Origin: a plasmid
Length of the DNA stretch: 64,000 bases
Sequence record: NZ_CP096760.1
Strand: one strand, 5' to 3'
Positions 1 through 22,482 of this stretch are shown here, piece by piece. A program made the translations under genes and the position numbers. The first letter of the stretch is position 1. Every line of letters starts with the position of its first letter. The notes under the pieces are model-generated. The model was not told the DNA's origin. It saw only the letters and a program-made list of their open reading frames with translations, and ran no database searches.

Positions 1-10
1 TAGCTTAAAA

Positions 11-328
11 GGTACAAAAATTCCGTTAAATCGCTTTTAACGGTACATTTTCTCCGTTAAAAGTCCTATAAAGGTACAAAAACTCCGAATAAGTACCTTT
101 TAAAGCCATTTTTCCATTAACTTAAAGAATACATAAAAGGATTTCGGTACATTTTCTCCGTTCACACCCCTATAAAGGTACATTTTCTCCGCTAAGCAAA
201 TAGCCAAAATCAAGATAACGGTACAAAAACTCCGATAGGGGAGTCATAACGGTACATTTTCTCCGTTTAAAAACCCTATAACGGTACAAAAATTCCGAAG
301 GAATGCATATAAAGGTACAAAAACTCCG
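11..328. repeat. Iteron array (origin): 9 copies of a 15-bp repeat in two alternating variants, GGTACAAAAA(T/C)TCCG and GGTACATTTTCTCCG
   Basis: Exact 15-mers at 11, 42, 73, 146, 177, 220, 251, 283 and 314. Several are preceded by CCTATAA(A/C). An AT-rich stretch follows, then the rep gene. Confidence 0.85.
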
Positions 329-469
329 GTAATGTCATTACATTGTCATGTTTTGGTCAAAATCCTTAAATATAAATCAGCTCAATTCCTGCTGGATAAC
401 TAGATTTACAAACATTATCTAATCATGTACCTTTTACGAAAACCAATAAAACCTTTCTGAACGGAATAT

Positions 470-1591
470 ATGGCAGAACTTATTAGGAATTCAGATGTTT
501 ATAAAGCGAATGCATTGATTAATGCAAGCTACGCTTTGGACACTGCTGAGCAAAGAATAATTCTACTCGCCATTTTAGTTTCCAGAAACAAGAATGCAGA
601 TCTGACTGCCGAAACGATTATCGAGATTCCTGCTTCCTTATATGCCCAAAAATTTAATACAACAGTGAGCGCGGCATATAAAACACTGAAGGAAGCCGAA
701 GATACCTTATTTGAAAGACGTTTTTCTTACACCACAATGCGAAATGGCAAGATTGAGGTGGTTCGGTCACGTTGGGTATCACGAGTTTCATACGTTAAGG
801 ATGATGCATTATTAACGATCACCCTAGCTCCTGATGTGATTCCTCTAGTAACCAAGCTAGAAGGAACCTTTACCAAATATGCCATCGACAATTTACGCGA
901 TGTGACCAGTAAATATGGCATCCGTCTGTATGAGTTGGTCGCTAGTTGGAAAAATTCGGATATACGTAAAACTCCTGTTTATGACTTCGAGGACTTCCGT
1001 GCCAAGATGGGCCTTCTTCCTCATGAGTATAGAGACAAGAAAAATCCCGAAAGTACGGATATGACCAACTTCAATAAACGTGTATTGAAGCCGGCAATTG
1101 ATCAGATTAATAGTTTTACTGACCTGTTTATTACTGAAAAGAAAATCAAGACAGGACGTAATATCACGGGCATTTATTTTGAAGTAAGTTTAAAAACCGA
1201 TAACTTCATTGAAGGCGAAGCGAAAGAAATCCATGACAGCAAGCCTTCTTCCGATTCAGCTAAAAAGACAGGCACTCCTTTAGAAAACATTAGGCTTCCA
1301 AAAGTATCGACCCAAGAGTTTTTGGGTAGTGATCTCAGCGAAGAGGACCTTAACAAAGAGAACCCATTAAAAGAATTTATCGTTGAATCTGGCGTTTATA
1401 AGTCTGCTATTGAAAAGCCAGTAGAAGAAAAGGATGAATTTGAATTAAATGGCATAAAACGATTGTATGAGGCTCTATTAAAGCTGGATGAAGGCGTAAC
1501 CAAGGAATACGTCCGCGAATATGCCCAGATTAAAGGCGTAACTCTACAACACGCATTAATTGAACTTTATAACTCTAAAAGACCGGCTTAA
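470..1591 (+). CDS. repB: Rep_3-family plasmid replication initiator (RepB-like)
   Basis: N-terminal ...KANALINASYALDTAEQRIILLAI... is typical of Rep_3 initiators. The gene lies directly downstream of the iterons. Confidence 0.8.
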   Translation: MAELIRNSDVYKANALINASYALDTAEQRIILLAILVSRNKNADLTAETIIEIPASLYAQKFNTTVSAAYKTLKEAEDTLFERRFSYTTMRNGKIEVVRSRWVSRVSYVKDDALLTITLAPDVIPLVTKLEGTFTKYAIDNLRDVTSKYGIRLYELVASWKNSDIRKTPVYDFEDFRAKMGLLPHEYRDKKNPESTDMTNFNKRVLKPAIDQINSFTDLFITEKKIKTGRNITGIYFEVSLKTDNFIEGEAKEIHDSKPSSDSAKKTGTPLENIRLPKVSTQEFLGSDLSEEDLNKENPLKEFIVESGVYKSAIEKPVEEKDEFELNGIKRLYEALLKLDEGVTKEYVREYAQIKGVTLQHALIELYNSKRPA

Positions 1592-1707
1592 ACATTCCGG
1601 CACTTGGGTCTTTTCCGAAAACTTGGGTTTTTGAAGTGCTAACGAATAATTAAATAATACTTTCTATAATATTTAAGTTTTTATATTAATTATTCGGAAA
1701 CGATCGG

Positions 1708-2439
1708 ATGTCCCAAGTTGAAAAACAAATACCCAAGTATTTAGATTGGGCGGGTCACTTTTATGGCAATGACCTTGATTTAGAACATTACGAAATTCTC
1801 ACCATTCAATACATTCCCAAGAAAGAGCGGAAGCTAGAAACGCAGTTAATGACAACCAAGTGGTTTGACTATAGGCTGATGCATCCCATGCAAGCCACTT
1901 ATTACTTCTTTCGGCTTTTCAAAAATGAATATCGAAACTTTTATAGAAAAGCTATTGATCATAAGGCGGCCGAATTCGTTAAACCCATTAAGGAGCGAGA
2001 TTTCTTACTCAGCCGTGAGGCCTTGTCATTTTGGCGACTCAGACAGGCAATTGATGCTTTGGGAATGCGTTATGACTTCTATTTAAAAACCGCATTTGAT
2101 AAATGCTTTAAGGTGATTGCGAATGGTAGACCTTTGCCACCTAGACCTGCTCAACTAAAAAAAGAAGAACTGTTAATTGAAGTGTTCCATGAGTGGGAGT
2201 CTTATTGTCAAGCTTCGCTCCAGATCGCTAAAAGTCCATATTTTACCGCTACACTTTTTCATAACAGTCCAATGCAAGTTGATTATGAAGATTTTATTGT
2301 TAAGCAGGTGCGGATGCGTCAAGTGCAGCATTATGCATTAGGGACATGCATTTATCGCTATGATGCACTTCGCATTGAAAAAGCTTTAGAGTCTTTTGAC
2401 ATTTCGATCATCAACCAAGCTATTAAATCCAGTATTTAA
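1708..2439 (+). CDS. hypothetical protein
   Basis: 243-aa ORF in a compact same-strand array. Confidence 0.5.
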   Translation: MSQVEKQIPKYLDWAGHFYGNDLDLEHYEILTIQYIPKKERKLETQLMTTKWFDYRLMHPMQATYYFFRLFKNEYRNFYRKAIDHKAAEFVKPIKERDFLLSREALSFWRLRQAIDALGMRYDFYLKTAFDKCFKVIANGRPLPPRPAQLKKEELLIEVFHEWESYCQASLQIAKSPYFTATLFHNSPMQVDYEDFIVKQVRMRQVQHYALGTCIYRYDALRIEKALESFDISIINQAIKSSI

Positions 2440-2458
2440 TGCTTTTTTCTCTTAAAAT

Positions 2459-2480
2459 ATTAATAAGCGCTTACTATAAT
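2459..2480 (+). promoter_or_regulatory. Conserved palindrome plus TATAAT promoter-like element
   Basis: TTAATAAGCGCTTACTATAAT upstream of the 2527 gene. Confidence 0.45.
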
Positions 2481-2526
2481 TTGATAATATCGTTTTTATA
2501 GTAATTACTAATGTTTCGAGGTTTTA

Positions 2527-2958
2527 ATGAGCGAATGGCAGAAAGAACTTGCGATACAAAACAAGTTCGGCAATAGCGCTCCAATTTCAAAGGAGTCTAT
2601 TTACTTAAATACGGAAGAAAAGCAAAAACTTCAATTTCAGCCGCGTAAAACGTATGGGCGTAGGCTGCCTGCGAACGAATGCGAAATTGAAGAAATGGGC
2701 TACATGAAGTTTGTTCGCAAGCTGCAAGAGCAAGAACAGGAAATTGTAGTCATTAAAACAGACGGCGAAGTTGTGCGTGGATACATCCGTGCTGCGGATG
2801 CAGAAACGATCTCGCTTCGTTGTTATTTGAATGGTGATAAAAACGGTCGTTATCGTGCGCGTGTTCTTTTCAAACACCAAATTTCCGAGTTCTCACCAAC
2901 TAAGGGGATTGAAGACCTAGTTGATGAGCTAGAGAGAAAGTCGAAATCTAAATCTTAA
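2527..2958 (+). CDS. hypothetical protein
   Basis: 143-aa ORF. Confidence 0.5.
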   Translation: MSEWQKELAIQNKFGNSAPISKESIYLNTEEKQKLQFQPRKTYGRRLPANECEIEEMGYMKFVRKLQEQEQEIVVIKTDGEVVRGYIRAADAETISLRCYLNGDKNGRYRARVLFKHQISEFSPTKGIEDLVDELERKSKSKS

Positions 2959-2994
2959 ACGTAAGCCATCTATTTTCTATAAGGATTATCTTAT

Positions 2995-4398
2995 ATGTCT
3001 ACTGCTGTGGCCGAAATTCATGAAGAAGAGGTCGTTGATAAAGAACTCGAAGGCTTCACCGAAGAAAAGTTTGATTACGACGATGAGTTTCAATCAAAAA
3101 TTGCGGCTTTAACTTTACGTGACGATGAGTTTCTTAGAAGAGCCGCCCATATTCTGAAGCCAGAATTTTTCGAAAATCAGGGTGAAGCATGTCTGGTCGA
3201 TATTGCGCTCCAACACTTCAATAAATATGGATGTTCTCCTGATCCTGCTTCTGTTGTCCAAATTATCAAGGATAAAGCTGCTTCTAAAGTTTATAAGCGA
3301 GAAACTTTAGCGGCAATTGTGGAAGCAAGGAAGAAATTAATTGGCATCTATGTCACTGACAAGGCTTTCGTTGAAGAAAAGGTTGTTGAGTTCGCGCGAA
3401 AACAGGCGGTATCCAATGCGATTGTTAATTCTGTTCCTGATCTTGAGGCAGGGAATTACGCCAAGATTGAAGCGCGTATCAAGGAAGCTATTGCGGTCGG
3501 ATTGAATGAAGAGGGTGTTGGTTATGACTTCTTCGCTCAGGCGTTGAATCGTAAGCTGGCACGTATCGAGAAGCTGACAGGCAAAGTACCTCCGACAGGC
3601 ATTACTACTGGCTGTAAAGAACTTGATGATCTGCTGTATCACAGAGGTTGGGGACGCAAGGAGCTGTCTCTATTAATGGGCGGTGCAAAAGCAGGTAAGA
3701 CGCAAGCGCTTATTCACTTTGGCCGTATCGCAAGCTTTGCTAAATACAACGTTCTATATGTAACGCTAGAAGTTGGTAAAGACATTATTGCAGACCGTTT
3801 AGATGCCTCTATTTCAAAAGTGATCATGAAAGAATTGGCGTCGAAGGCTGCAAGTGTTGCAACTGCGGTCGAGACGGTAGCCAAGACGGCGGGCAAATTT
3901 ATTATTCATGAATTTGGTTCCGGTACATTTTCTCCGTCACAGCTAAGAGCATTAATTGATAGGTATAAGAATCCTGGGCGGAACCCTGATGGAACGATAA
4001 GACCGCCAATCAAGTTCGATATGATCATTGTGGACTATGCAGATTTGATGCGTCCAGATATTCGTACAAATGACCCAAAAGAGAACTCAAGAGTTGTCTA
4101 TGTTGATTTACGCGCGATTGCTTTTGAAGAGAATGTGGCGTTACTGACAGCTACTCAGACCAACCGTGAGGGCTTTAAGTCAACGGTAGCCAAGGCAGAG
4201 CACGTAGCTGAGGACTTTAACAAAATCAGGACCGCTGACGTTGCAATCTCCATCAACATTACAGAGGAAGAGAGAGCGAAAGGTCAGGCTCGATTGTACT
4301 TTGCAGCTTCTCGAAACCAAGAGATGGGGGTTACTGTGGTGATTAAGCAGAATGTGTCCATGATGAGGTTCTTGGAAGAAGTGATTAGCGTCGAATAA
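2995..4398 (+). CDS. DnaB-family replicative DNA helicase
   Basis: Walker A GGAKAGKTQAL. The domain order is DnaB-like, with the C-terminal RecA-like ATPase. Confidence 0.8.
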   Translation: MSTAVAEIHEEEVVDKELEGFTEEKFDYDDEFQSKIAALTLRDDEFLRRAAHILKPEFFENQGEACLVDIALQHFNKYGCSPDPASVVQIIKDKAASKVYKRETLAAIVEARKKLIGIYVTDKAFVEEKVVEFARKQAVSNAIVNSVPDLEAGNYAKIEARIKEAIAVGLNEEGVGYDFFAQALNRKLARIEKLTGKVPPTGITTGCKELDDLLYHRGWGRKELSLLMGGAKAGKTQALIHFGRIASFAKYNVLYVTLEVGKDIIADRLDASISKVIMKELASKAASVATAVETVAKTAGKFIIHEFGSGTFSPSQLRALIDRYKNPGRNPDGTIRPPIKFDMIIVDYADLMRPDIRTNDPKENSRVVYVDLRAIAFEENVALLTATQTNREGFKSTVAKAEHVAEDFNKIRTADVAISINITEEERAKGQARLYFAASRNQEMGVTVVIKQNVSMMRFLEEVISVE

Positions 4399-4413
4399 AT
4401 TTAACCCAATATT

Positions 4414-4465
4414 ATAGTAAGCGCTTATTTATAAATTTGTGCTAGTATAAATAAGCGCTAATTTT
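4414..4465 (+). promoter_or_regulatory. Two tandem copies of the palindromic promoter-like element
   Basis: TATAGTAAGCGCTTATTTATAAAT and GTATAAATAAGCGCTAATTTTATC upstream of the primase gene. Confidence 0.4.
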
Positions 4466-4470
4466 ATCTA

Positions 4471-5580
4471 ATGCGATTTTGCAATATGAGCGATCAAGAA
4501 AGTTTAGCGGAGATATTAGACCGCATTGATATGGAGTATTGGCTTAACCGCGAAGGGTTTGAATACAAAGTAACTCGCGGAAAAAACGGAATCCAGTTGA
4601 ATGTTAAGGAATGTCCGGTATGTGGTAACTCAAGCTGGAAAGTCTATCTGAATCAGGATACGGGTTTGGGTAACTGCTTTCATGGTGATTGCGAAACCAA
4701 ATTCTCGAAATGGAAGTTTATTAAGGCTGGTATAGGCGGTAATAGCCTAAGCAATAAAGAGATAGTCGAGCATGTTAAAGCAATTGCTCAGGAGCAGGGC
4801 TGGCAGCCAAAGCGCAAAAGTGAACCCACACAAACCAAAATTGGCGATCTAAAGCTTCCAAAAGCCTATGACTTGCCGATCATGGGTCAGAACCTAAAGT
4901 ACCTTAAAGAGCGAAATATAACGCTCGATACGTGTCGTGAATTTGGACTGAAATTCTGTCAAAAGGGTTGGTTTGCATACATAGGCCCAACGGGTGAAAA
5001 GCAATACCAAAACTACAGCATGAGAATCATCATTCCTGTCAGGGACCTTGAAGGCAAGCTTGTGTCTTTTCAGGGTCGGGACATTACAGGAAAGGCTGAA
5101 AAGAAGTATCTATTTCCTCCTGGTTTCGCGTCTACGGGCACTTACCTATATAACGGCCATAATGCCCTAGGTTACGTTGAAATCGTCATGGGAGAGGGTG
5201 CTTTTGACGCTATGGCGATATATCAAGCCTTCAAGGAAGACGAGTTCCTTTGCAATGTTGGAGTTGTCGCGTCATTTGGTAAGCATCTTTCGGTAGGTGG
5301 TGATGAATCTCAAATGGCTGAACTACTAAAGCTTAAAGATGAGGGATTGGAGTGCGTGACGATTATGTGGGATGGAGAGCCTGCCGCAATTCTGTCTGCG
5401 ATCGACGCATGTTTAAAGATAAATAGCTTTGGCATAAAAGCAAGGTTGGCCACGTTGCCTGCTGGATGTGACCCCAATGAAGTCGACCCTGAAATCGTTC
5501 GCACAGCGTATCGAAAAGCGATACCAATTACGCCAATTAGCGCAGTAAGTTTACGCATTAAGTATATGGGTAAAGTCTGA
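4471..5580 (+). CDS. DNA primase (zinc-ribbon plus Toprim)
   Basis: CPVCGNSSWKV...CFHGDC zinc ribbon; Toprim-like IVMGEGAFDAMAIYQ and MWDGEPAA. The true start may be the internal Met at 4486. Confidence 0.75.
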   Translation: MRFCNMSDQESLAEILDRIDMEYWLNREGFEYKVTRGKNGIQLNVKECPVCGNSSWKVYLNQDTGLGNCFHGDCETKFSKWKFIKAGIGGNSLSNKEIVEHVKAIAQEQGWQPKRKSEPTQTKIGDLKLPKAYDLPIMGQNLKYLKERNITLDTCREFGLKFCQKGWFAYIGPTGEKQYQNYSMRIIIPVRDLEGKLVSFQGRDITGKAEKKYLFPPGFASTGTYLYNGHNALGYVEIVMGEGAFDAMAIYQAFKEDEFLCNVGVVASFGKHLSVGGDESQMAELLKLKDEGLECVTIMWDGEPAAILSAIDACLKINSFGIKARLATLPAGCDPNEVDPEIVRTAYRKAIPITPISAVSLRIKYMGKV

Positions 5581-5643
5581 ATCGTATTTGATTCCAAATC
5601 ATTGTTTTTAAAATATTGTTGAAGTTTTCAAGGTGCTTTTACT

Positions 5644-6198
5644 ATGAGTTTAAAAATTGTGGTCAGAAGTGCCTACTCATTGCATACGAGTGGGACAAAA
5701 TATTATTCGATGTTCTTGTTATCGGTACAGGACGGAGCTAAACGCAACACGCAATTATTCAAAATTTATGGCTCAGCGGTAAATCAAACCGCTCAAGTCA
5801 AACACCATCAAGAAGGTAATGGTGCAACTCTTGATACCGAATTTAATAAAACACTAAAAGTAAAAGGTAAAGCAGGTGAATATAGCGATTTACGTGAAAG
5901 CGAAATCTTGCACGAATTTGATAATTTCCATGATTTTATTACTTACTTGACTCTCGACTCTCAGATTAATGCCATTAGAGCGCCTTTCGCATCAGCGATT
6001 ACCGAAAAGGGTTTTGAAAAATACTTGGAAACCTTGTCTCAAACGTTCGGGATTCCAGTTGATGACATGTACAAATTTACATTCAACTATGAATCAGAGG
6101 AAGAACGGCAACGAAAACAAGAAGAGGAAGAGCGTAAGGCAGCTCAGCTCATGGCACAACGACAAGAATTTTATGGTGAAGTTTTGGGGTCTTGGTAA
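5644..6198 (+). CDS. hypothetical protein with C-terminal tail QEFYGEVLGSW
   Basis: 184-aa ORF with a charged ER/EQ-rich C-terminal region. Its stop overlaps the next start (TAATG). Confidence 0.55.
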   Translation: MSLKIVVRSAYSLHTSGTKYYSMFLLSVQDGAKRNTQLFKIYGSAVNQTAQVKHHQEGNGATLDTEFNKTLKVKGKAGEYSDLRESEILHEFDNFHDFITYLTLDSQINAIRAPFASAITEKGFEKYLETLSQTFGIPVDDMYKFTFNYESEEERQRKQEEEERKAAQLMAQRQEFYGEVLGSW

Positions 6199-6689: not shown

Positions 6690-7291
6690 CTAAAACTCTT
6701 CCTGTACTCGATTTGGAATTATCCAGAAGCGGAACAAATGCCTATTACTGCGATTTTTGCCCTCATACTGGCAACCGTCCTAATTATGCTGCATGCCTAA
6801 AGCGTATCCATAATGTTCAGGAGGGAAATGAGCGCGAGGTGGATGCAGTTTGCGTAGTCGCTATCCACAGACATCACTGTGAAGCTGCCGAAATGCGTGA
6901 ACGTGAAATTGAGGCAGGTAAGGCTCTCTATTACATTGATCGTTCAGAAATGCGAAAACAAGTTGGGAAGCGGCTGGCTAAACAAGGAATTTCTATTTCT
7001 TCTAAATTTGATTATAAGTTAGAACTTACTAATATTAATGGTGAAAAACTAGATAAAGAAATTCCAGTTAATTCAAAGGGTAATTATTCATTAAGTGATG
7101 CAATCAATACTAAACTAAAGAAAAATAGTTTGAATACCAAAGATGATCATGTAGAATCGCAACAAGAAAATAAAGTAAGCGCTAACTTATATATCGAGAG
7201 TGAGAGCTTAACTGTACCAAGTATCGAGAGCGGATTATCGCTTTTAGAAATTGCTAACCGTTTCAAAGCAAACACACAGGAAAAATTATGA
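6683..7291 (+). CDS. hypothetical protein, Cys/His-rich N-terminus (possible zinc binding)
   Basis: CDFCPH...CLKRIHN...HRHHCE; ATGGTAA overlap with the upstream gene. Confidence 0.5.
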   Translation: MVTKTLPVLDLELSRSGTNAYYCDFCPHTGNRPNYAACLKRIHNVQEGNEREVDAVCVVAIHRHHCEAAEMREREIEAGKALYYIDRSEMRKQVGKRLAKQGISISSKFDYKLELTNINGEKLDKEIPVNSKGNYSLSDAINTKLKKNSLNTKDDHVESQQENKVSANLYIESESLTVPSIESGLSLLEIANRFKANTQEKL

Positions 7292-7809: not shown

Positions 7810-9513
7810 ATGAATAGCGATCAGTTACTAGAGGCTTTAAACCAAATTGCATCTGAAAGCTCAAAAAATGAAAAACTAGCTTTACTCATGGATTTTGAAG
7901 CAGAAAAGGGGTTGTTCAGAGAAGTTCTGCGTTTGGCATATGACCCGTTTATTGTCTTTGGAATTTTGCCAAAAGCAGAAGATGCAGGAACAGGGGAGTT
8001 AATGTTTGATGAGGTTGATACCCTTGAGTTCCTATCTAAGCTTAATAACCGTGAACTAACAGGCAATGCAGCGCGCGAAGCGCTGCGTAGCCAACTGGCT
8101 CAATTATCAGAGAAGTCAGGCGAGCTTTTAATTCGAATTTTAAGAAAAGATTTACGTGCAGGTTTTAGTGATGCAACGATCAACAAAGTCGTGCCTGATT
8201 TGATTCCTGTATTTCCATACCAACGCTGTTCATTGCCTAGTGAAGTAAAGCTGAAGGCATGGCCGTGGAAAGATGGCATTTATTTGCAAGAAAAAGCTGA
8301 TGGCATGTTTGCCAACGGGACCAATTTAGAAGAGAAGTTCTTCTTGTCCTCACGCCAGGGCACGCCGTTACCTATGGAGCATTTTTCCGACCTTACTGCG
8401 GAAATGAATATGCTGATCAAAGATGTCCAATATCATGGCGAACTACTTGTCGAGCGTGATGGTGTAGTTCTGCCGCGCAAGGTAGGAAATGGCATCTTGA
8501 ATTCGGTCACAAAGGGTGGCTCATTTGCTGAAAATGAAAAACCGATCTATATGATTTGGGACTTCATTCCGCTTAGCTCTGTTAAGTCAAAGGGAAAATT
8601 TGAAGCAGCATATAAACGCCGTATTGCACTGATTAAATCGATGCTGGCCAAGTTTAAGCCTAAGTATGTGCGGCTGATTGATACGCATGTTGTCCACTCA
8701 TTGAGCGAGACTTACGATCACTTCTTTAATGTACTTATGCAGGGCAAAGAGGGGCTGGTAATCAAGCATCCAGAAGGTCACTGGAGAGACGGTACAAGTA
8801 AACACCAAGTTAAATTAAAACTTGATGCGGATTGTGAGCTGGAGGTCGTGAGCATTAATCCGGGTAAGGTGGGTTCAAAGAACCAAGGGAGAGCTGGAGC
8901 TTTGCATTGTAAATCTGCATGTGGTCAAGTCATTGTGGATGTCGCCATCAAGAATGAAAAAATGCGCGACGAGGTGGATGCAAACCCTAGTGACTGGATT
9001 GGTCGAATAATCACTGTGCGTTCAAATGCCATTATGCGTCCATCCAACAGTAACCAGAATTACTCGTTGTATTTGCCGCGTATGGTTGAGGACTGCTATC
9101 GAATCGATAAAACGGAAGCTGATGATTTAAAACGTATTGAAGAGCAATTCAAAAACGCTATCGAAGCTGCCAAGAAGCTGGCAGAAAGTGAAGCGGTGGT
9201 GGTAGCGAGAGCAGCGTCTGTATCCTCAGCTCGTCCTTCGACATCTTTTGCGCGGTCTTACAGCAGCTCGTCCACACGCGCTCCGACCACTACAAGTTTT
9301 CGTTCTAGTCCAGTTAAGACCGTGACAAAACCTAGTACGATTCGTTCTGTGAAGCCTGTTACAACGCCTGCTAAACCGATGCCTGTTTCTTCTTCATCTA
9401 CACAGAAGAAATCGCGTAAGATTGGTTTCCAATATGATTACTATGCATTTACAGATTGCATCCCTTATTCAAGCGGAAGTTTCCAAGGTTGGAAGTGTAT
9501 TGATCGGGATTAA
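7810..9513 (+). CDS. ATP-dependent DNA ligase with Ser/Thr/Pro-rich C-terminal extension
   Basis: Adenylation motif EKADGMF, motif IV EGLVIK, KLKLD. C-terminal about 90 aa are low-complexity S/T/P. Confidence 0.75.
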   Translation: MNSDQLLEALNQIASESSKNEKLALLMDFEAEKGLFREVLRLAYDPFIVFGILPKAEDAGTGELMFDEVDTLEFLSKLNNRELTGNAAREALRSQLAQLSEKSGELLIRILRKDLRAGFSDATINKVVPDLIPVFPYQRCSLPSEVKLKAWPWKDGIYLQEKADGMFANGTNLEEKFFLSSRQGTPLPMEHFSDLTAEMNMLIKDVQYHGELLVERDGVVLPRKVGNGILNSVTKGGSFAENEKPIYMIWDFIPLSSVKSKGKFEAAYKRRIALIKSMLAKFKPKYVRLIDTHVVHSLSETYDHFFNVLMQGKEGLVIKHPEGHWRDGTSKHQVKLKLDADCELEVVSINPGKVGSKNQGRAGALHCKSACGQVIVDVAIKNEKMRDEVDANPSDWIGRIITVRSNAIMRPSNSNQNYSLYLPRMVEDCYRIDKTEADDLKRIEEQFKNAIEAAKKLAESEAVVVARAASVSSARPSTSFARSYSSSSTRAPTTTSFRSSPVKTVTKPSTIRSVKPVTTPAKPMPVSSSSTQKKSRKIGFQYDYYAFTDCIPYSSGSFQGWKCIDRD

Positions 9514-14482: not shown

Positions 14483-14643
14483 GTCTACCTAAATAATTAA
14501 AAATCCCTCACTTGACCCTTCTCTGTGGTTAGTGTCCAAGGTTTGATGCTGACCACGGTCAAAATAAACCCTCTATTAAAACTCAAAATCTCCCCAATTT
14601 CACTCTTTATTTTTCAATAAATATTTTTATAATGCTTTTTAAT

Positions 14644-14666
14644 ATTAGTAAGCACTTATTAATATA
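14644..14666 (+). promoter_or_regulatory. Palindromic promoter-like element
   Basis: ATTAGTAAGCACTTATTAATAT. Confidence 0.4.
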
Positions 14667-14722
14667 CTGTCAAGTCTGTATATAGACCTCCAATAATGAT
14701 TTTTTTAGATTGAGAATTTTCA

Positions 14723-16645
14723 ATGAATGAGCGCATACATATTTTAAGACAAGCAATTGTCGTCGTTACCCAAGCACTGACTAACTCTGATATTGCAGTA
14801 ACGCAAGAAGGTATTGAGGCAGGTGTGCATAAGGATCCAAAGACAGGCAAACCTGTGCGAATTAACCTTCCATATCTTCCGGACAATTCACCAGATTCGC
14901 TGATTGATGCGGTTCAAGGTTTTCTTGATCAAGAGGTAGCGAAGTATCTTTTTACCGATTTTTCTCTCAAGCTAAAAGGATCTGAAGAGGTAAAGACTTT
15001 AACTTCATTGTTAGAAGAAGCGCGTGTAGAACGTTGCATGGCTGAAAAATATCGCGGTTCAAATATCAATATGAAAAATGCGAGCCAATTTTTCATTGAT
15101 GAATTGATTGACGATAAATACCAAAAACTTGTAAAGGAAAAAGCTTCTGATGAAGAAATTACGCAACATTTAATGTTGCCAATGTTACGTGCGTTAAGTG
15201 GTCAGGAAGTCTTTGAACATTACTTAAAAGACAAAATGAAGCATATTAAACCTGTGTGGGACATGCTTACTCCTTTTAAGCCAGAGATTGAAAAATTAAA
15301 GTCCACAAAAGACACAATGGATTTGGCTCAGCGTATCTATAAGGTACTGAAAGATGAGCCTGAATTGCCAGAACTCCCTGACAGCGAGCATGATGAAGAT
15401 AGCGACAGCTTACCAGAGCCAAAATCGCCAGGTAAAAGCGCTGGTGTAGGCAATAGCGAAGATGAGAATGAAGAAGATGATGATGAAGGTGGTTCTCTAG
15501 GTGGAGCTGTTGGTGCCGATGAGGGCGAAGATGAAGAAGGCGAAGGCGGTAGTGGTGGAAAAGCTAAACAACGGCCTAATGCAGTTAAGCATTCACTAGA
15601 AAGTGACGATAAGAAGAGTGCCCCTCCTCGTAGTGAATTTGTGGCCGCAATTCTGGACTCGTTAAAAGACACCGAAAACAACTACAGTGAGCAACTAAGC
15701 AAGAAGATTGCACAACGCACAGCAGCGGACGTTAAAAAATCTAAATACGCAGTATTTACCAATGAAGGTGATGTCATTGAACCGCTTGAAGTTCCTAAAC
15801 TTCATTACGATGACAAGATGTTTAAACGTCTTGAAGACAAGGTAGCTTCAATGGTTGGTCCTATGCAGAAAGATATGGAGCGGGCAATTCAGGCACGAAG
15901 TAAATCTGTATGGGAAAATGGATTAAAACAAGGAAAATTAAACAGTTCATCTTTAGCACGACTGGCTTCAACTGGTGATTGTCGAATTTTTCGTAAGCGC
16001 GTTGAATCAAAAACCAAAGACGTTGCTGTGAGCTTGGTCGTCGATATGTCAGGTTCAATGTGCGGTTCTAAAATCCATACTGCCGCTGCTGCGAGTTACG
16101 CACTATCAAACGTTCTGGATCGTCTCAAGATTCCTCATGAAGTGATCTGCTTTACTACTCATACAGACTCAGCCACTTACCACAAGCGTTTAAAGCAAAT
16201 TCGTGAAGCAGAAAAAAAATATGGCGTTAGTTATTCACGCTATGAAAACCTTTATATGCCTGTCATTAAAGGCTACAACGAGCGCATTAATACTGAAACA
16301 AAACGTCGATTTGGATGGCTTCCTCACTCAGGTTTAATGGCGAGTAACATTGATGGCGAATGTGTAGAAATTGCTGCACGTCGTCTAATGGGTCGTAAGG
16401 AAGCAGGTAAAATTATGATGGTGCTATCTGATGGCTCACCTGCGGGTGGAGGTAACAGTCGAGATCTGGAATATCATTTAAAAGAAGTGGTGAAGAAAAT
16501 CGAGAAGAGCAAGGTAGACGTCATTGGTATTGGAATTGAAGATGATTCTGTTCGTAGATTCTATGACAAACATGTGGTGATTCATGACGTTGAGCAATTA
16601 CCTAGCCTTGTAATCTCGCGTTTACGCAGTATGTTGTTAGCTTAG
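14723..16645 (+). CDS. CobT-like VWA-domain protein with acidic Gly/Glu/Asp-rich insert
   Basis: C-terminal VWA MIDAS-like VVDMSGSM...SDG. Internal low-complexity EDENEEDDDEGGSLGG...GEDEEGEGGSGG. Confidence 0.7.
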   Translation: MNERIHILRQAIVVVTQALTNSDIAVTQEGIEAGVHKDPKTGKPVRINLPYLPDNSPDSLIDAVQGFLDQEVAKYLFTDFSLKLKGSEEVKTLTSLLEEARVERCMAEKYRGSNINMKNASQFFIDELIDDKYQKLVKEKASDEEITQHLMLPMLRALSGQEVFEHYLKDKMKHIKPVWDMLTPFKPEIEKLKSTKDTMDLAQRIYKVLKDEPELPELPDSEHDEDSDSLPEPKSPGKSAGVGNSEDENEEDDDEGGSLGGAVGADEGEDEEGEGGSGGKAKQRPNAVKHSLESDDKKSAPPRSEFVAAILDSLKDTENNYSEQLSKKIAQRTAADVKKSKYAVFTNEGDVIEPLEVPKLHYDDKMFKRLEDKVASMVGPMQKDMERAIQARSKSVWENGLKQGKLNSSSLARLASTGDCRIFRKRVESKTKDVAVSLVVDMSGSMCGSKIHTAAAASYALSNVLDRLKIPHEVICFTTHTDSATYHKRLKQIREAEKKYGVSYSRYENLYMPVIKGYNERINTETKRRFGWLPHSGLMASNIDGECVEIAARRLMGRKEAGKIMMVLSDGSPAGGGNSRDLEYHLKEVVKKIEKSKVDVIGIGIEDDSVRRFYDKHVVIHDVEQLPSLVISRLRSMLLA

Positions 16646-21906: not shown

Positions 21907-22482
21907 ATGGAAAACTGGAAAGCAATTAAGAACTACGAAGGCTTGTATGAAGTTTCAGACTTAGGGCGTGTGCGGTCGCTTGACCGCATGGTCGCTGTTC
22001 CTCATGGTGGTCAACGTCTAGCAAAAGGGCAAGTGTTAAAACCTAAACAACATCGTGATGGCTACCTGTGTGTATTTTTAAGTAAGAAACAGAAGCAAAT
22101 TTGTCCAATGATTCACAAGTTGGTGCTTGAAGCATTTGTCGGAGAAAGACCAAGTGGAATGCAAGCGTGTCACGGTAATGGAGATAAGACAGACAACAGA
22201 TTGGTTAATTTACGATGGGATACCGTTAAGGCAAATCATAGAGACAAGAAAAAACATGGAACTACAGCTCGCGGAACCAAAGTAAACACAAACAAACTTA
22301 AACATGAGCAGGTAGTGGCAATTCGCGAGAAGCGGAACAATGGTGTGACATTACAAGCGCTCGCGGAAGAATATGGCATTTCTAACAATGCCGTCAGTCA
22401 CATTGTTTTGGGTAAGAACTGGCAATGGGTTGGTGGACCAATCCAAGAAAGAATTTTCAAAGATCGAGGCGCTAACCAATGA
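21907..22482 (+). CDS. HNH homing endonuclease (NUMOD4 plus HNH_3 plus C-terminal HTH), I-HmuI-like
   Basis: WKAIKNYEGLYEVSDLGRVRSL; HKLVLEAFVG...CHGNGDKTDNRLVNLRW. The gene sits between the two dnaE parts. Confidence 0.8.
   Translation: MENWKAIKNYEGLYEVSDLGRVRSLDRMVAVPHGGQRLAKGQVLKPKQHRDGYLCVFLSKKQKQICPMIHKLVLEAFVGERPSGMQACHGNGDKTDNRLVNLRWDTVKANHRDKKKHGTTARGTKVNTNKLKHEQVVAIREKRNNGVTLQALAEEYGISNNAVSHIVLGKNWQWVGGPIQERIFKDRGANQ

Follow-up and report, generated by a model that had tools for sequence, protein, structure and literature searches.

The window analysed here is the whole stretch of 64,000 nucleotides taken from plasmid record NZ_CP096760.1. Its positions 1-6000 are 100% identical to plasmid NZ_CP033864.1 of Acinetobacter sp. 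FDAARGOS_560 and 95-99.8% identical to about 50 plasmids of A. baumannii, A. pittii and A. nosocomialis, which mostly measure 90-134 kb (range 68-159 kb). Genes for phage tail, capsid, portal and terminase proteins are present on these related plasmids, and their helicase shares 37-38% identity with that of Salmonella phage SSU5 and its plasmid relatives. A megablast of positions 1-6000 against phages gave no match, and a scan of genome contigs for the locus returned one identical locus only. The element is an SSU5-like Acinetobacter phage-plasmid of the pABTJ2/ZW85p2 type with the Rep_3 initiator RepM, and it has in common with the family described under these names (PMC4411360; PMC7969092) a 373-aa Rep_3 replicase, direct repeats at the origin and, over the compared region, an identity of 95-100% to about 50 plasmids. 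One member, ZW85p2, carries the resistance genes sul2 and tet(B).

The region opens with an array of nine iterons (11-328, + strand), followed on the same strand by repM (470-1591), which encodes the 373-aa Rep_3-family initiator (Pfam Rep3_N and Rep3_C); this protein, called RepB in an earlier reading made from the sequence only, is annotated as RepM in PLSDB records. Between repM and the helicase gene lie orf243 (1708-2439, +) and an Hfq-like gene (2527-2958, +), with a sigma-70-like promoter at 2452-2480 marking the start of an hfq-like/helicase operon. The DnaB-like (phage T4 gp41-like) helicase gene occupies 2995-4398 (+; Pfam DnaB_C), a primase gene (4471-5580, +; Pfam DNAG_N and Toprim_2) follows on its 3' side, and an ATP-dependent ligase is encoded further along the window (7810-9513). 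The gene order of this region is conserved in four other groups of loci, L001, L006, L008 and L005/L010.

RepM is the presumed binder of the iterons, which follow one another at about 31 bp in the interval from the minimal origin to repM. They are of two flavours, a T-type, GGTACATTTTCTCCG, at 42, 146, 177 and 251, and an A-type, GGTACAAAAA[T/C]TCCG, at 11, 73, 220, 283 and 314. The T-type origin copies are confined to this 31-bp-spaced array. The copies at 41, 145 and 250 to which the sequence-only reading had drawn attention are part of it, but the edge of the window cuts the array, and a further six iterons are found in the source record at -229 to -28 (counted from position 1), which brings the origin to 15 iterons with the consensus GGTACA-N5-TCCG. 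In the source record and its relatives, the iteron at -229 adjoins a DnaA box, TGTGGATAA, and five A-type iterons with a 22-bp spacing occupy -115 to -28. Among 13 close relatives, GGTACA and TCCG are invariant in all nine iterons of the array, and 22 of the 340 positions of the origin region are variable (6.5%), nearly all of them in the spacers. The positions directly outside the iteron core vary from one origin iteron to the next, with C or A at -1 and any base at +1. The pABTJ2 paper reports only four imperfect 22-bp iterons (PMC4411360), and the part of its text that was searched is silent on the 31-bp array with its two kinds of iteron and on the helicase gene; a literature search brought up no further account of these iterons.

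Besides the nine copies in 11-328, the relaxed consensus GGTACA-N5-TCCG occurs a tenth time at 3922, inside the helicase gene, and a scan of the 64 kb revealed no other perfect copy outside the origin. The 17-mer CGGTACATTTTCTCCGT is found exactly at 41-57, 145-161, 250-266 and 3921-3937, as the sequence-only reading had reported, always on the + strand, and with two mismatches at 176. The helicase copy thus matches the origin iterons at 15 of 15 positions in the core (3922-3936) and at 17 of 17 when the flanking C and T are included, and has the orientation of all origin copies; since positions -1 and +1 vary among the origin iterons, the meaningful match is the 15-nt core. In the complete sequence of ZW85p2 (113,866 bp), the helicase site is the sole sequence outside the origin with at most two mismatches to either flavour. 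It occurs once, 3.6 kb beyond the final iteron of the array (314-328) and outside its regular spacing, and the helicase gene contains no second iteron copy. The site is read in frame as tcC GGT ACA TTT TCT CCG Tca, that is, S-G-T-F-S-P-S, codons S309 to S315.

The protein in which the site is embedded is a DnaB-family replicative helicase (Pfam DnaB_C, 1.3e-11) with a RecA-type domain whose Walker A, Walker B and H3 motifs are confirmed by the conserved GGAKAGKT, DYADLM and TATQTNRE, and its closest solved structures are 8due and 8dtp (phage DnaB-like helicase). The SGTFSP segment forms a strand-loop between Walker A/H1a and Walker B and aligns with KQYPTGGA of these structures. S309, G310 and T311 are invariant in 27 helicase homologues, and the following [FLMC][ST]P is nearly invariant in homologues down to 50% identity, so that the conserved peptide determines 10 of the 15 core bases.

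This constraint bears directly on how improbable the match is. Dinucleotide shuffles predicted 0.07 matches at three or fewer mismatches versus six found. Letter-permuted iterons matched the rest of the window at a rate of 1.1e-4 per 15-mer and 2.5e-6 per 17-mer, and real 15-mers from an unrelated plasmid did so at 8e-4; given the three distinct iteron 15-mers, the chance of any remote copy of the core is about 1e-3 or less. Once the peptide GTFSP and the codon usage of the window are taken as given, the exact 15-mer has P = 0.0029. The earlier statement that a chance match is very unlikely is therefore correct in the naive sense, but its figure of 17 nt makes the match look more informative than it is, because the peptide sets 10 core bases and the two flanking bases, variable among the origin iterons, add little. 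The real surprise lies in five synonymous bases.

Protein searches yielded helicases at intermediate distances (82%, 79% and 68% identity) and RepM homologues at 73% and 55%. Two RepM-type phage-plasmid lineages were present in the databases searched, the family of the window and that of loci L005 and L010, both on contig SRR24882459_14 (107,963 bp), where RepM is 73% identical at the amino acid level and the helicase 82% (73% at the nucleotide level). The L010 origin contains about 13 iterons with the consensus AACGGTACATTTTCTCC, also given as GGTACATTTTCTCC. The L005 helicase gene reads tcG GGT ACA TTT TCT CCG Acc at the site, a 15/15 match to the core, with differences beginning directly on both sides. 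Loci L006/L007, with a helicase at 79% identity, have a different Rep_3 protein (30% identical) and other iterons, GGTGTACAAATCCGACAG; their helicase site, GGTACGTTTTCTCCT, retains 13 of 15 bases, one of the changes falling within the invariant GGTACA, and the locus carries no copy of their own iteron. In L008 (helicase 68%, iterons GGGTGAGCAGATATAGCGTG) the site is GGTACATTCAGCCCA, matching at 10 of 15 positions, and in L001 (NZ_CP026705; helicase 57%, iterons CGGTAGTTAAAAATTCC) the peptide is ASGTLTG, 9 of 15 bases match and no remote copy of its own iterons was found. In about 100 further homologues from viral and metagenome contigs the synonymous positions vary freely and the 15-mer occurs in none, and an exact 14-mer scan of viral contigs returned scattered single chance matches only.

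The core thus co-occurs with its cognate Rep in both RepM-type lineages and is decayed where the Rep differs, with one independent origin only. The sequence-only reading had named, as what would refute it, a lack of the repeat in the helicase genes of related elements together with a lack of initiator binding; the repeat is there in L005/L010, and degraded or absent in lineages with another Rep. An 11-mer scan of the other lineages detected no remote copies of their own iterons, which argues that a remote copy is not a general design of these phage-plasmids. The same scan gave matches in L161 at 0.2-1.2 kb upstream of the repeat cluster of that locus, assumed here to be part of an extended origin. 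The converse relationship, in which the iterons would derive from helicase DNA, was considered and rejected: an ordinary plasmid with ParA and RelBE and no helicase encodes a RepM at 55% identity and has the T-type iteron CGGTACATTTTCTTTA, so the iteron predates its association with the helicase. The L005 primase gene contains a 14/15 near-iteron on the reverse strand that is absent from the window, and chance near-matches therefore do arise in these AT-rich genes.

Whether the DNA itself is held constant can be judged from the codons. At conserved residues, the helicase genes of the window and L005 use the same codon in a fraction of 0.456, which is close to the 0.40 found at 57% amino acid identity, so that synonymous sites are near saturation. 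Accordingly few stretches stay identical: only 2 of the 199 in-frame, amino-acid-identical windows of five codons in this helicase pair are codon-identical, and 9 of 438 when helicase, primase and ligase are taken together. With amino-acid-specific same-codon frequencies from 1,495 conserved codons in eight gene pairs, the neutral expectation for retention of G-T-F-S-P is 0.0086. These codon-identity frequencies put full retention at a pre-specified site at p of about 0.01 under neutral drift, and as the two RepM lineages represent one evolutionary event, this is a single comparison. The 15-nt run shared by the window and L005 is one of seven identical runs of at least 14 nt in the helicase gene; the objection that it is no outlier was dropped, since for a pre-specified site it is the fraction of windows fully retained (about 1%) that applies. 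The window, L005 and L006 lineages are roughly equidistant, with 71-82% amino acid identity in four genes, a lower 50-63% in the Hfq-like gene and no consistent sister pair. Drift at the site has altered two of the five codons, as expected, in the lineage whose Rep was exchanged (L006) versus none of five in the RepM lineage (L005), a contrast from one evolutionary event that is suggestive of retention linked to RepM.

Within the close family, 126 positions in 1-4400 vary among 13 loci, and the helicase gene contains 29 synonymous and 5 non-synonymous variants. A single variant falls within the 17-mer, G3936T (CCG>CCT), which is synonymous and affects the last base of the core. In PLSDB, 11 of 50 plasmids differ by one base in a 47-nt probe around the site, and the change was G>T in the four of four checked. 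The array iterons of plasmids with G>T still end in TCCG, so there is no co-variation with the helicase site. On the other hand, the variant yields GGTACATTTTCTCCT, the commonest iteron form in the L010 origin, which also resembles degenerate copies in the 22-bp array; as CTCCT is thus a regular iteron ending, the substitution need not abolish binding, and its use as evidence of drift is weakened. The bearing of G3936T on function appears neutral to mildly negative. Plasmid pML4_1 (NZ_CP118934, 99 kb, circular) has kept the origin and repM at 98% identity; beyond an IS-associated breakpoint at about 1905-1913, other DNA stands in place of the helicase region, and the 47-nt site probe did not match this plasmid. 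The site is hence not needed for plasmid maintenance, as would follow if replication from the RepM origin relied on the host DnaB. ISAba46 sits at the same point in several relatives, and records H138-H141, at first candidates for exchanged origin or helicase modules, proved to be ISAba46 insertions or an IS-associated deletion.

Because coincidence would require a match of about 1e-3 combined with a retention of about 1e-2, and because known systems use remote iterons, a selected site is favoured. We consider it reasonably probable that the core at 3922 is a selected remote RepM site when all modes of action are taken together, and the evidence for a function is suggestive, not decisive. Looping or handcuffing, which the sequence-only reading had put forward among other roles, would be its most plausible action by analogy with other replicons. 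The site can be viewed as a regulatory partner of the origin, not an origin itself and dispensable for maintenance. That it pairs with the origin array by looping and acts as a negative or coordinating element is a more specific proposal, to which we give somewhat less than an even chance.

In this mechanism, selection would have exploited a peptide motif that was already compatible with the iteron at 10 of 15 positions. The following steps draw on the established behaviour of Rep_3/iteron replicons, among them R6K, P1, F and RK2. A RepM monomer would occupy the 3922 core and, through Rep-Rep contacts, pair with RepM molecules on the 15-iteron array, which lies 3.6 kb upstream. The DNA looped out in this way would comprise repM, orf243, the Hfq-like gene and the first two-thirds of the helicase gene, and the loop could serve as a handcuff in cis that dampens initiation, the expression of the enclosed replication genes, or both, in the plasmid state.

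The strongest competitor is coincidence built on coding constraint, in which the fit between SGTFSP and the iteron is accidental and the five synonymous bases match through chance and shared ancestry; RepM may then bind incidentally, with no selected role. We regard this as a serious possibility, though distinctly short of even. Much of the evidence given above is compatible with it: the peptide dictates two-thirds of the core, the non-RepM lineage L006 already has 13/15 by descent, identical runs of comparable length exist elsewhere between the window and L005 helicase genes, the L005 primase gene offers a 14/15 near-match, and unspecified exact 16-mers recur by chance in the window. The G>T polymorphism in 22% of relatives (11/50; 4 checked), the dispensability of the site in pML4_1, the single evolutionary origin of the core and the fact that the finding was picked post hoc from a scan point in the same direction. 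Against coincidence stand the low joint probability of match and retention (about 1e-3 or less times about 0.01 for L005) and the ease with which a synonymous change could remove a bound site from an expressed gene, which has nevertheless been kept in both RepM lineages.

A selected RepM site could also act locally, as a transcriptional roadblock or operator in the hfq-like/helicase operon for which no looping is required. Less full-length helicase and less of the downstream primase would then be made while RepM is abundant in the plasmid state. The retention evidence applies to this reading as it does to looping, the site lies two-thirds into the helicase ORF of an operon read from the promoter at 2452-2480, and a plasmid-mode initiator and phage-type replisome genes may plausibly need coordination. 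Single bound monomers are, however, usually leaky roadblocks, and a weak promoter-like match at 3878-3905 does not exceed chance; promoter, terminator and DnaA-box scans around the site likewise gave nothing above chance. Overall, such a local effect seems unlikely. Slightly more doubtful still is a physical link between the two replication modules, in which a RepM loop would bring the DnaB-like helicase of the plasmid, through coupled transcription and translation, close to the complex of RepM with the origin, or in which RepM occupancy would gate the helicase-primase operon. If the gating were true, it would amount to a switch between low-copy plasmid replication and lytic replication, and if the link were true, the synonymous codon choice in an invariant helicase motif would spell out a regulatory DNA site.

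The sequence-only reading also put forward a secondary origin within the helicase gene. Such an origin, which could be of the R6K alpha/beta kind, triggered remotely by the main iteron array and perhaps used in lytic replication, is not supported. A lone iteron kilobases from the main array does reproduce the layout of R6K ori-alpha, and an AT-rich stretch, AAATTTATTATTCATGAATTT, lies directly 5' of the site. However, the codons for KFIIHEF account for this stretch, no AT-rich unwinding region in non-coding DNA lies near the site, the helicase gene (2995-4398) contains no DnaA box with one mismatch or less, the nearest ones being at 6719 and beyond, and the site is a single copy, with no repeat array, within conserved coding sequence. 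Such an origin is highly improbable. The same holds for a functionless recombination scar, in which short-patch gene conversion would have copied an origin iteron into helicase DNA that resembled it beforehand: fifteen donor copies are nearby and the helicase ancestor matched the iteron at 13 or more of 15 bases, but no homology beyond 17 nt could prime conversion, the flanks diverge at once in L005, and either repeated conversion or an ancient event with later preservation would be needed, which brings constraint back in. Titration of the initiator, a further role suggested from the sequence, would be negligible with one site versus 15 at the origin.

To our knowledge, the way in which phage-plasmids coordinate plasmid and lytic replication modes is poorly understood. 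A functional site at 3922 would be a lone remote iteron accommodated by the synonymous positions within an essential enzyme motif, a variant of the remote-iteron theme, and would tie a plasmid-type initiator to phage-type replication genes in widespread A. baumannii phage-plasmids, some of which carry resistance genes. Its five synonymous bases offer a simple experimental handle on the coordination of replication modes. If the match is a coincidence, it illustrates that conserved peptide motifs can mimic regulatory DNA sites and that exact-match statistics should be conditioned on coding constraint.

In R6K, ori-alpha and ori-beta are reportedly served by a single or half iteron located kilobases from the seven-iteron gamma array, through looping mediated by pi. 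The arrangement described here is similar in that a Rep_3-type (winged-helix) initiator has, besides its main array, an isolated iteron several kb distant, and in that this iteron overlaps a coding sequence, as ori-beta overlaps pir; looping would be the expected physical consequence. Unlike in R6K, the site is in a helicase gene instead of the rep gene, with no DnaA or IHF sites or unwinding element, and its function is more likely regulatory. The iteron clusters P1 incA and F incC, which act by Rep-mediated handcuffing (reviewed in PMC5043065 and PMC5397158), resemble the site as iterons outside the minimal origin acting through Rep pairing with origin iterons, but they are multi-copy clusters adjoining rep, whereas the site stands alone in a different gene at a distance of 3.6 kb. 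As in the origin of phage lambda in gene O, an initiator repeat lies over the coding sequence of a phage replication gene; lambda has four repeats and an AT-rich region forming an origin in the initiator's own gene, in contrast to one repeat in a helicase gene, far from the origin. The crtS locus of Vibrio cholerae, a checkpoint site, is likewise a remote single binding locus for an iteron-type initiator, RctB, and modulates initiation elsewhere, but it is situated on another replicon, is not iteron-like and is a positive trigger (PMC8565311; PMC11711613). The 31-bp-spaced array at 11-328 is itself unusual; it lies between the 22-bp-spaced array and repM and resembles an incA- or incC-type control locus.

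The replication origin combines two architectures and is split by the window edge, with one part at window positions 1-328 and the other in the preceding 230 bp (14559-14787 of NZ_CP033864.1; L296). The upstream part carries one iteron adjoining a DnaA box and five A-type iterons at 22-bp spacing, while window 1-328 holds nine iterons at 31-bp spacing, in which A-type (A5) and T-type (T4C) centres alternate. Within the origin, T-type iterons are confined to this 31-bp array, which may represent a copy-control (inc-like) locus. Four 22-bp repeats are all that is described in the searched text of the pABTJ2 paper (PMC4411360). Besides, inverted half-iteron-like elements lie at 421-470, directly 5' of the repM start region and overlapping it, namely cgtaaaAGGTACAtg at ~425-439 on the minus strand and, at ~460-467, AACGGAAT (reverse complement: ATTCCGTT). 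These elements could constitute an operator for RepM autorepression.

Comparison of the regions upstream of rep in lineages with other Reps (L001, L006 and L008), in L021 and in the RepM-type locus L010 indicated that the Rep/iteron module has been swapped repeatedly between Acinetobacter SSU5-like phage-plasmids whose gene order is otherwise conserved. This set contained at least five iteron types, i.e., GGTACA-N5-TCCG, CGGTAGTTAAAAATTCC, GGTGTACAAATCCGACAG, GGGTGAGCAGATATAGCGTG and TTTCGGTGACT. Across the set, orf243 and the genes for the Hfq-like protein, the helicase and the primase keep their place. A recurrent IS breakpoint is located at ~1905-1913, within orf243 (1708-2439). In pAbNCIMB8209_134 it is occupied by an ISAba46 insertion (confirmed in L004), NZ_CP028569, NZ_CP077239 and NZ_CP139271 either break at the same coordinates or have ISAba46 annotated, and pML4_1 lacks everything downstream of it, including the helicase.

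The gene at 2527-2958 is Hfq-like (Pfam Hfq E = 2.4e-4, under the gathering score), and its homologue in the L001 lineage is annotated as 'RNA chaperone Hfq'. In every Acinetobacter lineage examined it is conserved as the gene directly preceding the helicase, and it diverges fast, with 47-63% amino acid identity where the helicase retains ~80%. A palindromic motif around TAATAAGCGCTTA(C/T)TATAAT is dispersed in intergenic positions before many operons of the window, with copies at 2451-2483 and 4411-4433 and near 14646, 24926, 30819, 35581, 38441, 42797, 45486 and 47802. The top sigma-70-like promoter match within 1-5700 is the copy at 2452-2480 (10/12). The copies are probably related phage promoters that include an operator; a sigma-70-type factor is also encoded by the plasmid family itself, as seen in ZW85p2.

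A near-iteron, GGTACTTTTTCTCC(G), matching at 14/15 on the reverse strand, occurs at 2883-2896 (-) of L005, the relative with an 82% identical helicase, where it lies in the primase gene and is encoded by the peptide A-E-K-K-Y. The window primase gene reads GCTGAAAAGAAGTATC at the homologous place, so the near-iteron is not conserved and probably arose by chance. Positions 1029-1044 and 22238-22253 of the window share an exact 16-nt repeat that has no obvious meaning and serves as an example of how unspecified 16-mers can recur by chance within 64 kb.
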